Program-made: the position numbers and the translations under genes | Shown: positions 6,204-60,837 of the stretch, one piece after another | Numbering within the stretch: position 1 is the first letter of the stretch | How the letters are laid out: every line of letters starts with the position of its first letter | Notes under the pieces: generated by a model | The model's database searches: none | What the model saw: only the letters and a program-made list of their open reading frames with translations | Told to the model about the DNA's origin: nothing | From: Escherichia phage vB_EcoM_EP57 | Reading direction: 5' to 3' (one strand) | DNA length: 64,000 bases | Sequence record: OR544956

Positions 6204-8048
6204 TTAACCACCAGTGTTAGATTGTCCACTTAGAGTTGAAAGAGATAAACGTTGGAAAATGCTATTTCCGCTATTTTGAATTCTTGCATCAAGAATATTT
6301 CCAAACTCTGAAGAAGGGCTGATCGTAACTTTGATAAGATCACTTGGTATTGCTACCGTATTCTCAACAACAGGTTGATTACGAGCCAAACTTACATTAG
6401 GTGTATATGCCGACTGACGTAAATCTTCCAGAGGATTACCAAATCCAAAAGCACGTGTCCTTGTTTGTTCTCCTCTCCACATACGACCAATATCTTGTGT
6501 ATCAATACCTGTTAAATTGTACAACCAATCTGCTACAGGATTGCTGTCTCCACTTTGCGTTGCCTCGTATGCTTTTTGTGCTAAAGATTTATTAGGATCT
6601 GTGTCTTTAACGTTATCCAACCAAGAATCATCTTTAGGTAAGGCTTTCACAAAACCCTCTAAGAAGTGGTTCTGCATACCTTGACCTACAAGCTGAACTG
6701 TTGCAGCAAAACGAGTAAACTCTTTAGAAGCATCTATTTGTTCTTGAGTTAATGTTGCACCTGTTCTTTGAAGCATTTTCAATACTTCATTATACCCTTC
6801 GCCGTTTTTACTAAACATACGTTGGTAGTGCATAAGGTCATCACCAAGGTTTTCAAGAAGTCGCCCGATTTGAGCAGAGTTCATACCTCGACGCTCACCT
6901 TCATTAACAGTAGCCTGAATAAAAGCTAAAGGATCGTTCTGTAAAGGTTTAAGCTGTTCTGGATTCCATCCAAACAAGTTCATAATGTCATTTATGCCAT
7001 TATCACCGCCTTTCCACTTCCCTTCTTTCTCATTCCATTTTGAGGCTAAAACTGTATTACCAAGACGTTCACGAACGTCTTTAATATTATCTATTGACTT
7101 AATAATATTTGCAGAGTCTACACCGTTCTGTTCACCCCAAGCTGTCATCGCTAAAATAGAGTTGGCGTTTGTCTGAACGTTTTCAGCGCCACGACTTACA
7201 AGTTTAATTCTTTCGTTAGTATTCATCAACGTGTTACCAACTACAGAACCACCTGCAAACAGCCCAGCACCTATTAAAGAGGATGCAATCATGCGTGGAT
7301 TAAGACCTGCTGCACCTTCTTTTAATTGTCCATATCGACGATCACGATCACGTTTTTGTTGAGCTAATTCACGCTTACGGTTGCGTTCTATATCTCTAAG
7401 TTCACGATTTCGCATACGTATACGCATTTTAGCTTCTGCTTCTAGCTCTCTACGAATACGGCGACGACCGCGAACCTCGTCTTCTATTTCAGCATTCTTT
7501 TCACGATGAGATCTGCGTAAGGCATCTAACTGGTGAGCAAGAGCTTGGTTCATACGTTGAAGAGTTATTTCACCCTTTTTGTATTGCTCTACAGCTTTAC
7601 CCATAACGTCCCTAGCTTCTTGCATAGCCCCAGGACTGGCTTTACTAAATGCTCTTGCTCTGTAGTTAAAGTTCTGCAAACGAAGATTACCTAAATCTTC
7701 CCTACGTGCTGCTGCTTTAGCTTCGCGTTCAGCAGCTTTACGAGCTTTTTCTTCTTCTCTTCCTTGCGGGGTTTTAGGAGTTCTAGGTCTACCAGATCCG
7801 CCTACAGGAGCACCCGCTCCAGCGGGAGTAGGTGCTCGCATAGGTTTTTGACTTTGAGTTTGAGCTTTCTTAAGTTCACGCTCAATCTCTTTCATTTGTT
7901 GTCTAAACTTGGTCATGTTCATAGTGGGTTGCATTTTATTTGCAAACTTCTGAACACTCAACACGGCATCTTTTGCTTCCTTGAGACTGTTCTTGTCCAC
8001 CTTAAACGTAACCACGTTACTAATTTTGGAGGCGTTAATTTCTAACAA
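6204..8048 (-). CDS. tail tape measure protein
   Basis: 614 aa, long charged coiled-coil stretch (REEEKARKAAEREAKAAARRE...), directly downstream of the frameshifting chaperone pair. Confidence 0.5.
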   Translation of the reverse strand: MLEINASKISNVVTFKVDKNSLKEAKDAVLSVQKFANKMQPTMNMTKFRQQMKEIERELKKAQTQSQKPMRAPTPAGAGAPVGGSGRPRTPKTPQGREEEKARKAAEREAKAAARREDLGNLRLQNFNYRARAFSKASPGAMQEARDVMGKAVEQYKKGEITLQRMNQALAHQLDALRRSHREKNAEIEDEVRGRRRIRRELEAEAKMRIRMRNRELRDIERNRKRELAQQKRDRDRRYGQLKEGAAGLNPRMIASSLIGAGLFAGGSVVGNTLMNTNERIKLVSRGAENVQTNANSILAMTAWGEQNGVDSANIIKSIDNIKDVRERLGNTVLASKWNEKEGKWKGGDNGINDIMNLFGWNPEQLKPLQNDPLAFIQATVNEGERRGMNSAQIGRLLENLGDDLMHYQRMFSKNGEGYNEVLKMLQRTGATLTQEQIDASKEFTRFAATVQLVGQGMQNHFLEGFVKALPKDDSWLDNVKDTDPNKSLAQKAYEATQSGDSNPVADWLYNLTGIDTQDIGRMWRGEQTRTRAFGFGNPLEDLRQSAYTPNVSLARNQPVVENTVAIPSDLIKVTISPSSEFGNILDARIQNSGNSIFQRLSLSTLSGQSNTGG

Positions 8049-8068: not shown

Positions 8069-8407
8069 TTAAACAAGTTTCTTAAACAAATCTGACATTT
8101 TATTTGTCTGGTTTTGATGTTTTCTCTTTATTGAAGTGTCTTTAACATACATGGCTTCAACATACTCTTCGTATGTTAAATACTCATATAGTTTTAAAAG
8201 ATAATCTACACCGTAGTTATCCAATGTTTTCAGTGTTTCCGAGGTATCTTTAACGACTTTGCAAAGAATAACCTCATACCACTTCAAAGTAAGGGTTTTC
8301 GTTGCTGTGTCGATAGCATGTTCAATCGCAGGTGTTAATTTGCTGCTAAACTCGTCATCGCCTGAAGCTGTGTGAACAGTTTTCCGAAACCTCGTTTGAA
8401 AAAAGGG
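8069..8407 (-). CDS. tail assembly chaperone frameshift extension (GT-like, reached by -1 slip)
   Basis: -1 frame is open continuously from the slippery site at 8398..8407 to the stop at 8069; downstream ORF has no RBS of its own. Confidence 0.45.
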   Translation of the reverse strand, partial: PFFQTRFRKTVHTASGDDEFSSKLTPAIEHAIDTATKTLTLKWYEVILCKVVKDTSETLKTLDNYGVDYLLKLYEYLTYEEYVEAMYVKDTSIKRKHQNQTNKMSDLFKKLV

Positions 8408-8817
8408 CCGTAGTTTACCTCCAGAACTTTAGCAGTAAGATCTAACACTAGTTCTGGGTGAGCCATAAATAATTCATCAAAATTTTCTGCAACGTTATAA
8501 CCGTCTTGAGTATAAACCTCATCTAAAATTTTACGCAAAAATACAGTTAAATTCTTTTCTTCCAAACCTGCAAAAAGTTGGATCAGTGCCATAGCAATAC
8601 GTGACTCAAGGTCTTCGTCTGCGGACATTGTTGCTGTGCTATACATAGTCATAGGAACAACCAGAACACTACCCAATTCTGGAATCCTGTCAAACACTTT
8701 AGATGGACTCCACTTCATAATACGGAAAGTAACAGATCTGTTTCCATCTAACGGAATCTCAACTACTTCTTCTGGTCGAGCATATTTTTGAATCGTGTTA
8801 TCTTGTTCTTGTGACAT
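8335..8817 (-). CDS. tail assembly chaperone (G-like, zero-frame product)
   Basis: 160-aa ORF between tube and tape measure genes; slippery run near its 3' end. Confidence 0.5.
   Translation of the reverse strand: MSQEQDNTIQKYARPEEVVEIPLDGNRSVTFRIMKWSPSKVFDRIPELGSVLVVPMTMYSTATMSADEDLESRIAMALIQLFAGLEEKNLTVFLRKILDEVYTQDGYNVAENFDELFMAHPELVLDLTAKVLEVNYGPFFKRGFGKLFTQLQAMTSLAAN
8398..8407 (-). promoter_or_regulatory. programmed -1 ribosomal frameshift slippery site (CCCTTTTTTC)
   Basis: zero-frame codons GGC CCT TTT TTC; X_XXY_YYZ heptamer T_TTT_TTC. Confidence 0.45.
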
Positions 8818-8862: not shown

Positions 8863-9314
8863 TTATTGAATTGTCAGAGCAGAGATTGAGTTAAGGGTGC
8901 TCAAACCTACACCAACTTCATTACGCAGAAGACTTGCATCTTTAAGACCAATAACCCATTGGTTCTCTGTAATCATTTCGCCAATAGTATCTTCAGGCTG
9001 ACTTTGAATCCATCCAATCGTGCTAATGTAATAGCCACGTGGGTCTTCCAAGTAAACACTGAACGCTACTTGACGAGTAGAATACATTGTTTGTGCATAT
9101 GTTGCAAGCAAGACATTGTGAGTGTTCCCAAACGGTTACGACTCAAAGCTAGTGAAACGTCGCCATCAGTCCCTGAATAAGGGTTGATAATATCGTTAGA
9201 TTTAGCAATAACGATTTTAGTATCAGCCGCAAAACCCCACGGTTCCCAACCACCTAATGAAAGGATAACTTGAGATGGGTCGTAGGCCATTACGCCAGTA
9301 AGCATTTTATCCAT
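8863..9314 (-). CDS. tail tube protein, interrupted by an apparent frameshift near 9111-9138
   Basis: two overlapping 82-aa ORFs in different frames (9066..9314 and 8863..9111); second has no RBS and TTG start; together ~145 aa, tube-sized, between sheath and chaperones. Confidence 0.4.
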
Positions 9315-9360: not shown

Positions 9361-10734
9361 TTAGTTTGCAGTACGGTTAGTCAGGACGTTGACCTGAACT
9401 TTAACGTAATGGAAGAAGCCAGCGTAAACATATTCAATCTTCATCCCATCGACCAGACGAGCATTGATTTGCGCATCAGTCATATCGGCACGAGAAGGAA
9501 TATAAACAATAGGTTTCAGATCGACACGCAAACCAGTCTCTTCAGAAGTAACAACTTCATTAGCGATGGAACCGTTGAGGATACCTACTTGGATTGGGTT
9601 AGCCAGAACAGCTTGTCGAATCAAAGCCAGACCGTTTGAAGTAGCACGAACACCACCACCCAGCATAGACTGTTGTTTAAACAGTGTAAACAGTGATTCT
9701 TCTGTGCGAGCTTTAAACCACAAAGCATGAACAACATAGTCAACAAAGAAACCGCTAACCATCAATCCATCACGATAGAACAGAGTTCCATGCTCTTTAC
9801 GATAGATGTTACCGTTCTGTTGAACAATATTGTTTTCCGAAGTCTGATCCAGTTTCTCGATCTCTACACCTACCAGTGTTTTACCGTGAAGAGTAGTTAA
9901 ACCAGGTTGACGAGAACAGATTGCACCAACAACTGCTGCTTCTGGGAATACAGAATCTGCATCGGTCATCCACAAAGCAAAGCAAGTGTTATTATAACCG
10001 AGGTCATTCAGTCGTTCCAGAACGTTATCTTCTGCTTTCGTTTTAATTCCAGGTTCAGAACTAGAGAAGAAGTAAACTTTATCATTCTCTTCTACCCATG
10101 CAGCCAAAGCTAGAACATCTTCTGTTTCATGGGAATCTGAAAGGGTCCAGAACCAGCTACTATCAATATCATGCAGAGCAGCGATATCTTCCGTAATAGC
10201 ATTAGCATAGACAGTTTCTTGAGTGAAACCTGTGCTGTCAATAGAACCAAACTTACCTTCTACTGGAGTGAAAGTCATTGCAGCGCCGTTGTTAGCTACT
10301 GTAAACAGTGGGCCATAAACAAGATCTGCATTGATCATTTCAGTCAGACCAACTACAATCTCTTGTGCAGTTGCAGTGTCATCAGCAATGAATTTAAATT
10401 CTTTTTTCTTGGTACCATTTTTGATGGTAATTGTGTAAGTTGCACTATCTTCTACGATTGGAGTTAGAGTAAAGTTTGTAACTTCACGCTTACCAACCAT
10501 GACTTGATCTGGTGGGAACAAACCGTTAAACAGTTTGACTGCCATAATATACGCTGGATCATTTAATCCATAACCTGCTTCCAAAAGTGCATCGGAAGAA
10601 GAGTAATATTGAATCGCTTCGCCAGTTACGTTCTGACCTGTAAGGATCAGGGGAATATCGAACTGGGTTTCACGAATTGATGTAGCACCATACAGTAAAG
10701 TTACGGTTGCTACCTTTTCACGAAAAGTTGCCAT
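9361..10734 (-). CDS. tail sheath protein (or major tail protein)
   Basis: 457-aa ORF immediately upstream of tube and chaperone genes; hairpin after its stop. Confidence 0.4.
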   Translation of the reverse strand: MATFREKVATVTLLYGATSIRETQFDIPLILTGQNVTGEAIQYYSSSDALLEAGYGLNDPAYIMAVKLFNGLFPPDQVMVGKREVTNFTLTPIVEDSATYTITIKNGTKKKEFKFIADDTATAQEIVVGLTEMINADLVYGPLFTVANNGAAMTFTPVEGKFGSIDSTGFTQETVYANAITEDIAALHDIDSSWFWTLSDSHETEDVLALAAWVEENDKVYFFSSSEPGIKTKAEDNVLERLNDLGYNNTCFALWMTDADSVFPEAAVVGAICSRQPGLTTLHGKTLVGVEIEKLDQTSENNIVQQNGNIYRKEHGTLFYRDGLMVSGFFVDYVVHALWFKARTEESLFTLFKQQSMLGGGVRATSNGLALIRQAVLANPIQVGILNGSIANEVVTSEETGLRVDLKPIVYIPSRADMTDAQINARLVDGMKIEYVYAGFFHYVKVQVNVLTNRTAN

Positions 10735-10768: not shown

Positions 10769-11407
10769 TTATTCGGTAGGGTTGTTAAATAATGATCCAT
10801 TTTGATTGACTGACGAGTATTCGCCTGGAACCAAAGTAATTGCATAAACCCTGTTTAGAATTAAATCTAAAGGGATAGGATCATTGTAACTATCTCTGAA
10901 TGAACGGATGTGCATGTTGATTGCTTCTATTGGTGTAGTAGCAATATCTTCAATACTCATACGAGTGTTGAACGTCATAACCATACGCGCTCTTAATTCA
11001 GTCTTATCTCCGTCTACAATTGTATTGGCTTGAGCTATATTGGAGGCTCCTAAAAAACCAAGACCTTTAGAATAGAGATGTTTGTATTTTAATTCCTCTG
11101 CACCACGGAGAGCAGCCAGAACATAGCTCATCAAAGTGGTAGGTCTTCCACGATAGGCTACAAGTTCAATCTCGTAGGTATTATCCATCTCGTAGGAATA
11201 CATATCATTTTGAATAGAGCTTCGGTAAGACCAACCTCCAGAATCGCTGGAAGTGATAATATGTAGTGCTAGGTAAGGAGTATCCGGTTTAATGAATGGC
11301 TTATCCATAACATAGACTGGCAACCCCACTAATTCTTGAAGGAAGCCACCTATATTTAAGTAGATGGCATTTTCGTATGCTTCTATTTGTTGGTAAATAT
11401 TAGCCAC
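10769..11407 (-). CDS. hypothetical head-tail joining / tail completion protein
   Basis: 212-aa ORF between head and tail modules. Confidence 0.3.
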   Translation of the reverse strand: MANIYQQIEAYENAIYLNIGGFLQELVGLPVYVMDKPFIKPDTPYLALHIITSSDSGGWSYRSSIQNDMYSYEMDNTYEIELVAYRGRPTTLMSYVLAALRGAEELKYKHLYSKGLGFLGASNIAQANTIVDGDKTELRARMVMTFNTRMSIEDIATTPIEAINMHIRSFRDSYNDPIPLDLILNRVYAITLVPGEYSSVNQNGSLFNNPTE

Positions 11408-11503
11408 TGTTCTGTTCCTTGTTGTAACCCCTTCATTTCTGTTTTAGTCCAGAAACTATATTGAGCCTTAGATCTGTAACCTTCAGGTAGTGCATTCAGT
11501 GTT

Positions 11504-11695
11504 TTACCAGATATCGGTTGTAAGCTTGCCTTCAATGGTAAATGGTTCATATTCTACACTACTTTCTAAGTTAGCAATAACTGAACCAACAGCCTCTTTG
11601 TAGACTCGTCTACGACCTTGGTATTCAGTTAGATCAAGGAGAGTAAATTGATCTAGTAACACTTGTATCTCCTTTTTAGTATACATCAAAAACAA
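11504..11695 (-). CDS. hypothetical protein
   Basis: 63-aa ORF, same strand, intergenic fit. Confidence 0.25.
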   Translation of the reverse strand: MFLMYTKKEIQVLLDQFTLLDLTEYQGRRRVYKEAVGSVIANLESSVEYEPFTIEGKLTTDIW

Positions 11696-17981: not shown

Positions 17982-20057
17982 TTATCTTTTACGGACACTA
18001 TACGGTTGGTGAAATCCGCTGTTCATTCTACTGTATCCTGTAGGAGCATTTGTTGTTGTAGGGATAGCTACTGCTTTGAAAGTATTCTCTTTTGACAGAG
18101 TATTAAAACAAGAGGCAGCAGCATCGGGAATGTCATCTTTAATAGTGGCTGTAGATCTTTCACCATTGAAAGATTCCAATTCTTTATAAAAGTGGGTTAA
18201 AGTCTCCACATTAGGGAAAGAATCTTCAACAATATAAACAAAACCGTTTTGACACGCACTACTAAAAGGCATGAAACGCTGAAGCTTTTTCTTGTTACCT
18301 GGCATAGCATCTGGTTTAACAACAAAACCCTCTAGAATAAGTTTCTTTGCAGACTCTGTGTATTCTATTGTCCCAGCACCAGATGGGTCTTTAGGAAGCA
18401 CTACTGTAACTTCTGGTCCATCAATCTTACATTGATTTAGAATCAGGTTATCCCTTTCCCCAGGTAGTCTTCGAAACCTTCCGAAAATTTTACTTTTCTC
18501 ATCCACAGCATCATAATCATAGTCGCCAAAGATGTAGATATTACCATCTTGGTCTTTACCCATTTTGACAGATGTTGTATAGTCTGGATAACGGTAAGTT
18601 TCTGTAGGAACTGAAACAGCTTTATCCCATGCTCGCATTAGTTTAAGATTGTTAGGAACATCTTTATAAGATATTTTATGTAACCATTCACGTTGAAAGA
18701 AAGATTCTTTCTGGATACGTGCAAACCAACAACCGTCCAGAAGCTGTGCTCTTTTGATCGCTGTTTGTGATTTAAGCTGTGCTAAGTAATTAGGGTTAAG
18801 CCTAATGAGTTCTGGGTTATCAAATATTGTCCCACCAATAAATACGAAAGTTTGTGGTTCAATAACAACTGTCTCCCCTGTATTAGGGTTTTCCATGAAA
18901 CAGTTTTCTGGATATTTTTCTTTCAGTTCTTCAGGTGTGTCAGCAAAAACAGGTTCATCGTTAACAATGATGAAATATTTTTGTTTACCACACATATCTT
19001 CTCTAGGATAACCACCCTCATCAAGATAAGGTAACACCCAATTCAAAACCCAACTATCTGCGTCAGGGTTACATGTGCACAACATGAAACTTGTTTCTGA
19101 CTCTGAACGCATACGTCCCAGAAGATAGAGCATTTCATATTGTGTGAAGTGGGTTAACTCGTCAAAACCTACCATTGAATACTGTGTACCCTGATGGTTT
19201 GTTTCTGCTGTTACGTTATCATTTTCCAAATGGTCAAATTTGAGGGTTCCGCCACCAGTGGCTTCAAAAATGATATCCATTGTACTTTCTTTTACGTGTG
19301 GTTGTAAAGGAAGATACAAACGTTTTGCTTCTGTAAACAGACCACCTGGTTTACGGTGAGCAGTGGTGTTCTTACGGAAAAGTATTCCACCAAACAAAGG
19401 GTCTTTGTAGGCGTATTTTAAAGCTTTCAGCAATAGCAGACGAGACTTGCCGCTATTCCCAGTAACGAAGCAGTGATCGCCACGTCTAAAGACAATATAG
19501 CTGCTTGGAGTCTCAAAACAATATTTCTTATCATCTGTTGAAATAACCTCGTGTATTTTTAAGTAAGTGCTCTTTTTACCAGGTATGTTAAAAGGAACAC
19601 GTTTACCGAATGGATTTTCTACATAACCTTGCAGGGGTTTTCCTATTTGCTGTAATGCAATAAGATCTCCTACAAGAATCTCGAAATGTTTCTTTGATTT
19701 CTTTTTCTTATAGAATACAAAACGGTGTTCCATACTAAGTTCTTGGAATAATCCTACACCATTTGTTATTCTGTATAGGTTATCTCCATTTAAATCGTAT
19801 TCTACAAAATAAGGTGTTACCAATTCTAAACGCTTATTCTTAGGATTGTATTGGTAAATATCCTCTCCCGAATATTCACTAATCTGCCTCCAACCATCTT
19901 TTGTAAGATATTCCGTTTCAGCAGAAACACATCCAGCGGCACCACCATAAATCATAACCTCTGGCATTAAATCCATTGCAAGAGTCTGTTTACCTGGTTG
20001 AGCCTTTACTTCAATATCTACTCCAGCTAAACTACCTGCTGCCTTTTTCTTTGCCAC
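17982..20057 (-). CDS. terL: terminase large subunit (intein-containing precursor)
   Basis: Walker A split as GGAAG / SGKS around insert; Walker B MVGFDE; CTCNPDAD motif; 691 aa = ~532-aa terminase + 159-aa insert. Confidence 0.85.
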   Translation of the reverse strand: MAKKKAAGSLAGVDIEVKAQPGKQTLAMDLMPEVMIYGGAAGCVSAETEYLTKDGWRQISEYSGEDIYQYNPKNKRLELVTPYFVEYDLNGDNLYRITNGVGLFQELSMEHRFVFYKKKKSKKHFEILVGDLIALQQIGKPLQGYVENPFGKRVPFNIPGKKSTYLKIHEVISTDDKKYCFETPSSYIVFRRGDHCFVTGNSGKSRLLLLKALKYAYKDPLFGGILFRKNTTAHRKPGGLFTEAKRLYLPLQPHVKESTMDIIFEATGGGTLKFDHLENDNVTAETNHQGTQYSMVGFDELTHFTQYEMLYLLGRMRSESETSFMLCTCNPDADSWVLNWVLPYLDEGGYPREDMCGKQKYFIIVNDEPVFADTPEELKEKYPENCFMENPNTGETVVIEPQTFVFIGGTIFDNPELIRLNPNYLAQLKSQTAIKRAQLLDGCWFARIQKESFFQREWLHKISYKDVPNNLKLMRAWDKAVSVPTETYRYPDYTTSVKMGKDQDGNIYIFGDYDYDAVDEKSKIFGRFRRLPGERDNLILNQCKIDGPEVTVVLPKDPSGAGTIEYTESAKKLILEGFVVKPDAMPGNKKKLQRFMPFSSACQNGFVYIVEDSFPNVETLTHFYKELESFNGERSTATIKDDIPDAAASCFNTLSKENTFKAVAIPTTTNAPTGYSRMNSGFHQPYSVRKR
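19455..19931 (-). mobile_element. mini-intein (159 aa) inserted in the terminase P-loop
   Basis: starts CVSAETEYLT, internal SMEHRF (TxxH-like block), ends FVTGN followed by Ser; excision restores GGAAGSGKS. Confidence 0.7.
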
Positions 20058-25332: not shown

Positions 25333-26132
25333 GCAACTATCCAATTACAGGCGTAACCTATTCTTGTGTAGCAAAAGGTGGTTTATATACAGTAGTGGAA
25401 TTTCCAAAACCTGCCGGAATATCTAAAGTGTTTGATCCTGTGGTTATCTATGAAGATCTTAGAACAGGTCAACGTTACTGGAGATTTGTGAATGACTTTT
25501 TAGATCGTATGGAGGTAGTAAGTGGCGAAAACACCGAAGAAGTTATCAAAGCCAACGTTACTAAGAAACCGAAAAACGAGGTTCTCAAAGTAGCCAAATC
25601 AGTTCCTAAGAAAGATAAATTTGATACGGAGGCATTCGTCTTTGACACACCAATCGAGAAGATTGAAGAAGCGTTGCAACGTCTTGAGGAGCAGGAGGCA
25701 GATCCAATGGCTGAACCACTCGCTGAAGCAAAAAACATTGGTCGTTCCAATGAAACAACACCAGAAGAACAAGCTGAACTTGAAGCTTTTGCCAAATGGA
25801 CAAAACAGTTAAAGAATGGCTATTATAAAACAAAAGAAGAAGCTGAAAACCATGTTCCTTCCACACCAATGAAATGCCAGGATTATAAAGATTATCCTGA
25901 AAGGGTTGTGTTCCCTGGTTATGCACAATACAAACTGAACGGGTTACGTTCTATGATTAACATGAAAGGAGAGTGTTTATCAAAAGCTGGGGAAGTGTAC
26001 AACCTGCCACCTCATTGGAAAGGTATTCCAAACTTTATTAGTGAAGTTGTTGGTCATCCTCTTGATGGTGAAGTGTTTGCTGGGTTAGGTGTCCTTAGTC
26101 TGCAACAAATTAACAGTGCTTGCAGTAGTTGA
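25329..26132 (+). CDS. ATP-dependent DNA ligase-like nucleotidyltransferase, N-terminal part (motifs I and III); apparently split from 26089..26592
   Basis: KLNGLR (motif I, KxDG-like) and LDGEVF (motif III); frame ends 16 codons after motif III. Confidence 0.45.
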   Translation: MSNYPITGVTYSCVAKGGLYTVVEFPKPAGISKVFDPVVIYEDLRTGQRYWRFVNDFLDRMEVVSGENTEEVIKANVTKKPKNEVLKVAKSVPKKDKFDTEAFVFDTPIEKIEEALQRLEEQEADPMAEPLAEAKNIGRSNETTPEEQAELEAFAKWTKQLKNGYYKTKEEAENHVPSTPMKCQDYKDYPERVVFPGYAQYKLNGLRSMINMKGECLSKAGEVYNLPPHWKGIPNFISEVVGHPLDGEVFAGLGVLSLQQINSACSS

Positions 26133-53829: not shown

Positions 53830-54081
53830 TGTTTCAATGCACATTGGTTGGTGAGCAAACTAAAAGAAAAAGAGAAACCATTTCCTACTCTGCTTGATCG
53901 TTCTCTTGTGGAAGATGCAGGTAAAGCATATGCAGACTATGCGTATGCAGACGGGAAATATTTGGAAGATGATAAGGCTAACCATTTGCTTTATGTTTAC
54001 TATGAAGCTGAATCTGCCTACGATAATTATTACAGCATGTCTAACATCCTACGTCTGTTTGCAGAGTTTGATATTTATTAA
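53830..54081 (+). CDS. hypothetical protein, apparently frameshifted in an A-rich run (ATG 53830 frame closes after 22 codons; 77-aa frame from 53848)
   Basis: strong RBS and ATG at 53830; downstream frame lacks RBS and starts TTG; homopolymer-rich aaactaaaagaaaaagagaaacc at junction. Confidence 0.3.
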   Translation, partial: CFNAHWLVSKLKEKEKPFPTLLDRSLVEDAGKAYADYAYADGKYLEDDKANHLLYVYYEAESAYDNYYSMSNILRLFAEFDIY

Positions 54082-54098
54082 ACAAATAAACCACTCAA

Positions 54099-54118
54099 GG
54101 GGCTTCGGCCCCTTTCTT
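54099..54118 (+). terminator. GGGGCTTCGGCCCC hairpin plus T-tract
   Basis: GGGGC-TTCG-GCCCC then TTTCTTATT. Confidence 0.45.
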
Positions 54119-54132
54119 ATTAGGAGAATAAA

Positions 54133-54366
54133 ATGACTGAAGAAATCCGTGATTACTACCTTGCACATTACGTTTACTACTTTGCCAATGCTACACAAAA
54201 AGGGGAAGGTAATCTTTACTTGGCAACAGGACATGGAACAGGCGTTAGGAAATCAGAAGATAAACTTCAAACACCTGTAGTTGTAGTGATGCAAAACATA
54301 AGTTACCTAGCAAGTTGTACTGAAACCGAATTTAACGCGTCTGAAACGCAATCTAACGAAGAATAA
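54133..54366 (+). CDS. hypothetical protein
   Basis: 77-aa ORF with RBS; last plus-strand gene before convergent terminator. Confidence 0.4.
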   Translation: MTEEIRDYYLAHYVYYFANATQKGEGNLYLATGHGTGVRKSEDKLQTPVVVVMQNISYLASCTETEFNASETQSNEE

Positions 54367-54372
54367 AACAAA

Positions 54373-54401
54373 GGCACCCAAGTGGGTGCCTTTTCTATTT
54401 T
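54373..54401. terminator. bidirectional rho-independent terminator between convergent blocks
   Basis: GGCACCC-AAGT-GGGTGCC flanked by T-rich tract on plus strand and TTTGTTTT on minus. Confidence 0.6.
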
Positions 54402-60749: not shown

Positions 60750-60837
60750 ATTTTCAAAAAATACGTCCCATCCGGCAAAAGGGCTGACAGCATGATTAAG
60801 TGATCTACAGATTCATTTTCTTGTTTCATATCCTCTC

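Follow-up and report, generated by a model that had tools for sequence, protein, structure and literature searches.

The minus strand of the window, by which we mean the whole 64-kb stretch of DNA that was analysed, carries a run of tail genes in which two short ORFs lie between a tail sheath gene on one side and the chaperone and tape measure genes on the other. All of these genes have the same orientation, and their coordinates are given in Table 1 together with those of the other features considered in this study. The frames of the two short ORFs overlap at 9066..9135, and the frame of the downstream one is −1 relative to that of the upstream one. This −1 frame is open upstream to position 9135, just past a TAA codon at 9136..9138. 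The initial annotation, which had reported two ORFs of 82 aa and their overlap, was exact in both respects. The upstream ORF corresponds to residues 1-68 (M1..S68) of the native protein; 14 further residues (CLQHMHKQCILLVK), read out of frame, precede its stop codon. In the downstream frame, the stretch PFGNTHNV, which lies upstream of the start of native sequence at L79, is an out-of-frame reading of codons 61-68.

Table 1. Coordinates of the tail tube locus, the neighbouring genes, the frameshift heptamers and the deletion junctions in the window.
Feature	Position	Strand	Remarks
Tail tube, N-terminal fragment (ORF1)	9066..9314	−	82 aa, ATG start; ORF list
Tail tube, C-terminal ORF (ORF2)	8863..9111	−	82 aa, TTG start; ORF list
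Open −1 frame with C-terminal part of the tube	8863..9135	−	native L79..Q159 from ~9108
28-nt deletion junction	9109..9110	n/a	clean join with respect to tuntematon, 1 nt microhomology
Heptamer T_TTG_GGA	9126..9132	−	no other heptamer of the X_XXY_YYZ type in the overlap; probably incidental
Tail sheath gene	9361..10734	−	intact, 457 aa; PF11863 E217_gp31_N
Tail assembly chaperone gene (TAC-N)	8335..8817	−	intact, 160 aa; PF21822 Phage_TAC_15
Heptamer T_TTT_TTC	8398..8404	−	in the chaperone gene
−1 frame of the chaperone locus	8069..8407	−	open for 113 codons from T_TTT_TTC into the 72-aa ORF
72-aa ORF	8069..8287	−	'hypothetical'; ORF list
Tape measure gene	6204..8048	−	listed ORF 614 aa, 662 aa in relatives
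Deletion junctions	near 395, 1615, 2402, 6604, 9109, 11406, 11530, 20057, 22926, 24504, 24824, 25186, 25252, 25555, 25721, 26122, 27539, 30033, 31004, 38386, 44980, 46576, 53837, 54079, 56810, 56910, 60777
39-nt gap	54078..54400		placed only to within this interval

Identity of the split gene and of its lesion

Based on sequence comparison, the window is assigned to Phapecoctavirus (phAPEC8-like, Stephanstirmvirinae). Escherichia phage tuntematon was its nearest relative over the whole window, 0.485% of positions being substituted in the 63.8 kb compared (99.5% identity), and phAPEC8 exhibited 0.98% differences (99% identity). The tube region matched 126 phage records, Phapecoctavirus for the most part. 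In phAPEC8, SKA64 and tuntematon, the position of the two ORFs is held by a single 480-nt ORF encoding 159 aa. Its annotation in these relatives reads 'virion structural protein' or 'putative tail tube protein'. The intact homologue, gp107 of phAPEC8, showed 93% identity to Phi92_gp131 of PDB entry 21vm (E 2e-95) and also matched the 'Tail tube protein' chains of entries 9cuy and 9cb9 (E about 6e-30). With respect to the window itself, the upstream ORF aligned with positions 3-67 of the phrog_280 profile (E 9e-16) and the downstream ORF with positions 74-139 of its 143 positions (E 6e-9). These matches identify the ORFs as two halves of one protein family and not as a chance pair.

A Pfam scan gave no hit for either fragment; the intact protein reached 24.4 bits against PF11681 (KPP10_Orf10), slightly below the cut-off of 25. 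Pfam being sub-threshold, the identification rests on PHROGs and on the PDB sequences, from which the split gene is recognised as the contractile-tail tube gene (phi92 gp131 / PHROG 280 / PF11681). The phAPEC8/phi92-like tube gene is located between sheath and chaperone, as is the split gene in the window. The initial annotation had proposed a tail tube gene at this place, interrupted by a frameshift, and the profile matches and the PDB sequence matches together with the flanking genes agree with it on both points.

Alignment with phAPEC8, SKA64 and tuntematon revealed that the tube gene of the window is shorter by exactly 28 nt, all of them from the middle of the gene. Apart from this gap, the tube region of phAPEC8 differs from the window by four substitutions, one of which lies beside the junction, and is otherwise identical. 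On the plus strand, tuntematon reads TTGCAAGC, then the stretch ACTTCGTTAGCTGGAGATGTGCGTTGCA and then AAGACATT, while in the window TTGCAAGC is joined directly to AAGACATT. The loss comprises codons 69-77 (L69-E77) plus one base, the first of V78, and the native sequence picks up again at L79, in the −1 frame. The phAPEC8/phi92-like tube gene is one 159-aa ORF in every relative examined, whereas the copy in the window is out of frame and holds the tube domain in two frames, with no single uninterrupted ORF for the whole of it. As judged from the alignment, the lesion is a clean deletion of 28 nt and not a base-call error of 1-2 bases. Phage phAPEC8 contains two copies of TTGCAAC in this region, but a deletion mediated by this repeat would remove 31 nt, not the actual 28, and was discarded. 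No direct repeat of several nucleotides was found at the end-points of the tube deletion.

The 28-nt deletion was found in none of the 126 related phage records. In the best 30 of these records the 801-nt query covers 829 nt, and the 99% identity that would be expected of a record sharing the deletion was reached by none of the 126. In the assembly collection, 496 blocks contain the exact sheath protein, and the tube gene was examined in 8 long contigs with an identical sheath protein (ENA, Logan, JGI, NCBI). All 8 encode the 159-aa protein and contain the 28 nt, so that the deletion was found in 0/8. The 30-nt junction had no exact match in IMG/VR, in the GTDB species genomes or in the JGI metagenomes, complete E. 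coli genomes contained nothing that matched the tube region, and an exact look-up of the protein of the upstream ORF returned no record. Among all the sequences examined, the tube deletion thus appears peculiar to the window sequence. The comparison with the tube proteins of related phages, which had been recommended in the initial annotation, yielded an intact gene in phAPEC8, SKA64, tuntematon and the 8 contigs; the possibility raised there, of two independent genes each conserved in relatives, is contradicted by the single ORF found throughout.

Deletions and substitutions across the window

In a chained comparison with tuntematon, the window showed about 28 deletions and 0 insertions, and the same gaps were seen when it was compared with phAPEC8. 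The smaller deletions measured 1, 2, 2, 4, 6, 6, 7, 10, 12, 15, 17, 19, 20, 26, 28 and 28 nt, and the larger ones 38, 39, 50, 61, 65, 106, 134, 144, 151, 152, 871 and 4044 nt. Only one of them, at 60777, corresponded to a single homopolymer base. Microhomology was checked at 23 junctions. It amounted to 0-2 nt in 21 of them and to 4 nt in the other two; the average, about 1 nt, is close to the chance level. The four deletions located between 5.8 and 13.8 kb of the window were found in none of the 8 metagenomic contigs.

A total of 26 of the about 28 deletions were mapped onto the CDS of tuntematon, the coding fraction being 0.906. Coding sequence was hit by 23 of these 26, and 17 of the 23 were out of frame, a share similar to the two-thirds that would be expected if selection were absent. 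The lengths of the remaining coding deletions (6, 6, 12, 15, 144 and 4044 nt; 6/23) were divisible by three, and five of these six, each of which lies inside or beside one gene only, might in principle reflect natural variation. As regards the coding substitutions with respect to tuntematon, 222 of 282 fell at codon position 3, and 227 were synonymous versus 55 non-synonymous. The substitutions are therefore under normal purifying selection, whereas the deletions are blind to the reading frame and bear no trace of selection. This normal selection on the mismatches led us to reject synthetic or noisy substitutions. Natural indel polymorphism was rejected as well, given that the more divergent control pair tuntematon/phAPEC8 (1.26% substitutions) had no indel in the structural gene block; the indels of this pair ran in both directions, and most of them were found in the tRNA/intergenic stretch or in segments that are divergent or vary in content.

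Several other genes of the window are affected. The gene of a large tail protein (2877 nt in relatives) has lost 17 nt at 395 and 19 nt at 1615, both out of frame; the two deletions lie about 1.2 kb apart and total 36 nt, so that the original frame is regained beyond the second. A tail fibre gene is broken by a 2-nt deletion. The gene of a Phage_HCP-type head-tail connector (in relatives 138 aa and annotated 'minor head protein') is split by a 2-nt deletion at 11530 into the ORFs 11383..11550 and 11504..11695 (minus strand; 55 and 63 aa), and its 3' end is removed by a 151-nt deletion at 11406. In the tape measure gene, which encodes 662 aa in all relatives examined, there is an in-frame deletion of 144 nt (48 codons) at 6604|6605. 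The deletion at 25721 measures 4044 nt with respect to tuntematon and 2610 nt with respect to phAPEC8. Through it, a transposase-like gene is fused at its middle to the gene of an ATP-dependent DNA ligase, ~138 nt inside the latter, so that the 5' end of the ligase gene is gone, and this gene has a second deletion, of 106 nt, at 26122. The gene of an HslV-family peptidase has a 28-nt deletion. At 20057, 6 nt are gone between the RBS and the start of the terminase large-subunit gene, and the GGAG Shine-Dalgarno sequence abuts the start codon. The region of a Sir2-like gene (53837..54400) is mostly removed by deletions of 152, 871 and 39 nt with respect to tuntematon. Given about 28 unselected deletions, these anomalies (tail protein and tail fibre, connector, terminase RBS, ligase and Sir2) may share the origin of the tube lesion. 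In this regard, the tube deletion serves as a quality flag, and any other finding of a broken gene, a missing start or an odd spacing in the window needs to be checked first against tuntematon and phAPEC8.

Origin of the tube frameshift

From the 28-nt deletion, its uniqueness, the pattern over the window and the contrast in selection between deletions and substitutions, we infer a technical rather than a biological cause. The split of the tube gene is very likely a defect or artefact of the window sequence, or at most of a non-viable molecule. The tube deletion would be one of about 28 scattered over the 64 kb, none of which would ever have been under selection, and for this reason they would most likely have arisen outside any replicating phage genome. 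It must be considered that such a set of lesions would be impossible in a viable virulent phage; since, in addition, the lesions are unselected, the tube frameshift is best read as a defect of the sequence. The deletions may have been introduced at the stage of sequence production, assembly or processing. The underlying phage would then be an ordinary Phapecoctavirus with a normal tail tube protein of 159 aa, while the sequence as written would encode no functional tube, but the 68 N-terminal residues of the protein extended by 14 nonsense residues. Consequently, the split gene would carry little biological weight, the tube protein being normal and structurally characterised and no new decoding being involved.

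Sequencing artefacts are typically 1-2-nt homopolymer indels that occur in both directions. The window resembles deposited or processed genome sequences affected by frameshift or indel artefacts in that one record has a broken copy of an essential gene that is intact in all close relatives, and in that many similar lesions accompany it. Unlike the typical artefacts, however, those of the window include no insertions, vary in size between 1 and 4044 nt and have clean junctions. Clean joins without microhomology are atypical both for short-read de Bruijn assemblers and for the errors of nanopore consensus sequences. The initial annotation had attributed the frameshift to a base-call error or to an unusual recoding event. 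An error in the sequence is indeed the likeliest cause, although in the form of a clean deletion of 28 nt and not of one or two miscalled bases; recoding finds no support, given the single uninterrupted 480-nt ORF of the relatives.

It is unlikely, although it deserves consideration, that the deletions are real and were present in a defective, non-viable or helper-dependent derivative of a Phapecoctavirus, or in decaying phage DNA. The tube gene would in that case be a true pseudogene, one among many, and its source might be, for example, a mixed lysate with defective particles or a sample in which decaying phage DNA was carried along. Unselected decay would also fit the bias toward deletions and their frame-blind spread, and the junctions are clean. 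However, about 28 deletions stand against only 309 substitutions with respect to a viable phage, and these still show purifying selection; a very recent burst of deletions, free of insertions, would be needed to account for this. Spontaneous deletions usually use short repeats, and the near-chance microhomology of the junctions is unlike them. Phapecoctaviruses are virulent, and no copy was found in complete E. coli genomes or in GTDB genomes; neither was a second record of such a molecule found when IMG/VR and the JGI metagenomes were searched with the junction or when the protein of the upstream ORF was looked up. If the deletions were true, the window would represent an unusual case of a massively deleted genome of a virulent phage.

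Recoding of the overlap is far less probable, and we regard it as close to negligible. It would require that ribosomes shift to the −1 frame within 9066..9135, for example on the heptamer T_TTG_GGA, and produce a tube protein of about 150 aa (68 + 1 + 81) versus the 159 aa of the intact one, with ...LGNTHNVLLATYAQ... as the expected junction peptide; the ~145 aa given for the joined product in the initial annotation is corrected accordingly. The downstream frame is in fact the −1 frame, and T_TTG_GGA, which conforms formally to X_XXY_YYZ, sits in the overlap, three codons past the opening of that frame. This heptamer is created by an A-to-G change with respect to phAPEC8, and it was considered as a compensatory slippery site. 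The idea was rejected: tuntematon has the same bases in an intact tube gene, so the change is a neutral synonymous variant (TTA/TTG, Leu). To our knowledge, U_UUG_GGA is not among the efficient slippery sequences of bacteria. No stimulatory structure was found in the 75 nt downstream of the heptamer, where the minimum free energy was −10.7 kcal/mol versus a shuffle mean of −11.1 kcal/mol (z = 0.14), and no homopolymer run of A or T that could serve transcriptional slippage was found in 9066..9135, the longest run being of 3 nt. A conserved two-frame layout of the tube gene was found in none of the 126 phage records or the 8 contigs. Furthermore, the recoded product would lack residues 69-78 and have residues 64-68 replaced, in the middle of a single-domain protein, and each of the 16 further out-of-frame coding deletions of the window would need a rescue of its own.

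A candidate programmed frameshift in the chaperone locus

A different frameshift of the tail module probably lies next to the tube gene, in the chaperone gene, where the heptamer T_TTT_TTC and the −1 frame that runs from it into the 72-aa ORF (Table 1) suggest by analogy a candidate programmed −1 frameshift of the TAC-N/TAC-NC type. A conserved −1 frameshift of the tail assembly chaperone (TAC-N/TAC-NC) has been described in related myoviruses, Vandenendeviridae and Andersonviridae (PMC12846349). The programmed frameshift known from chaperones, of the lambda G/GT type, and the tube pair are alike in having two overlapping frames in a tail gene, the downstream one at −1. In chaperone genes, the shift takes place close to the 3' end, so that both a short isoform and a long one are produced, and divergent genomes share this layout (PMC12846349), whereas the break of the tube gene is located in the middle of a domain, is seen in no relative examined and results from a deletion.
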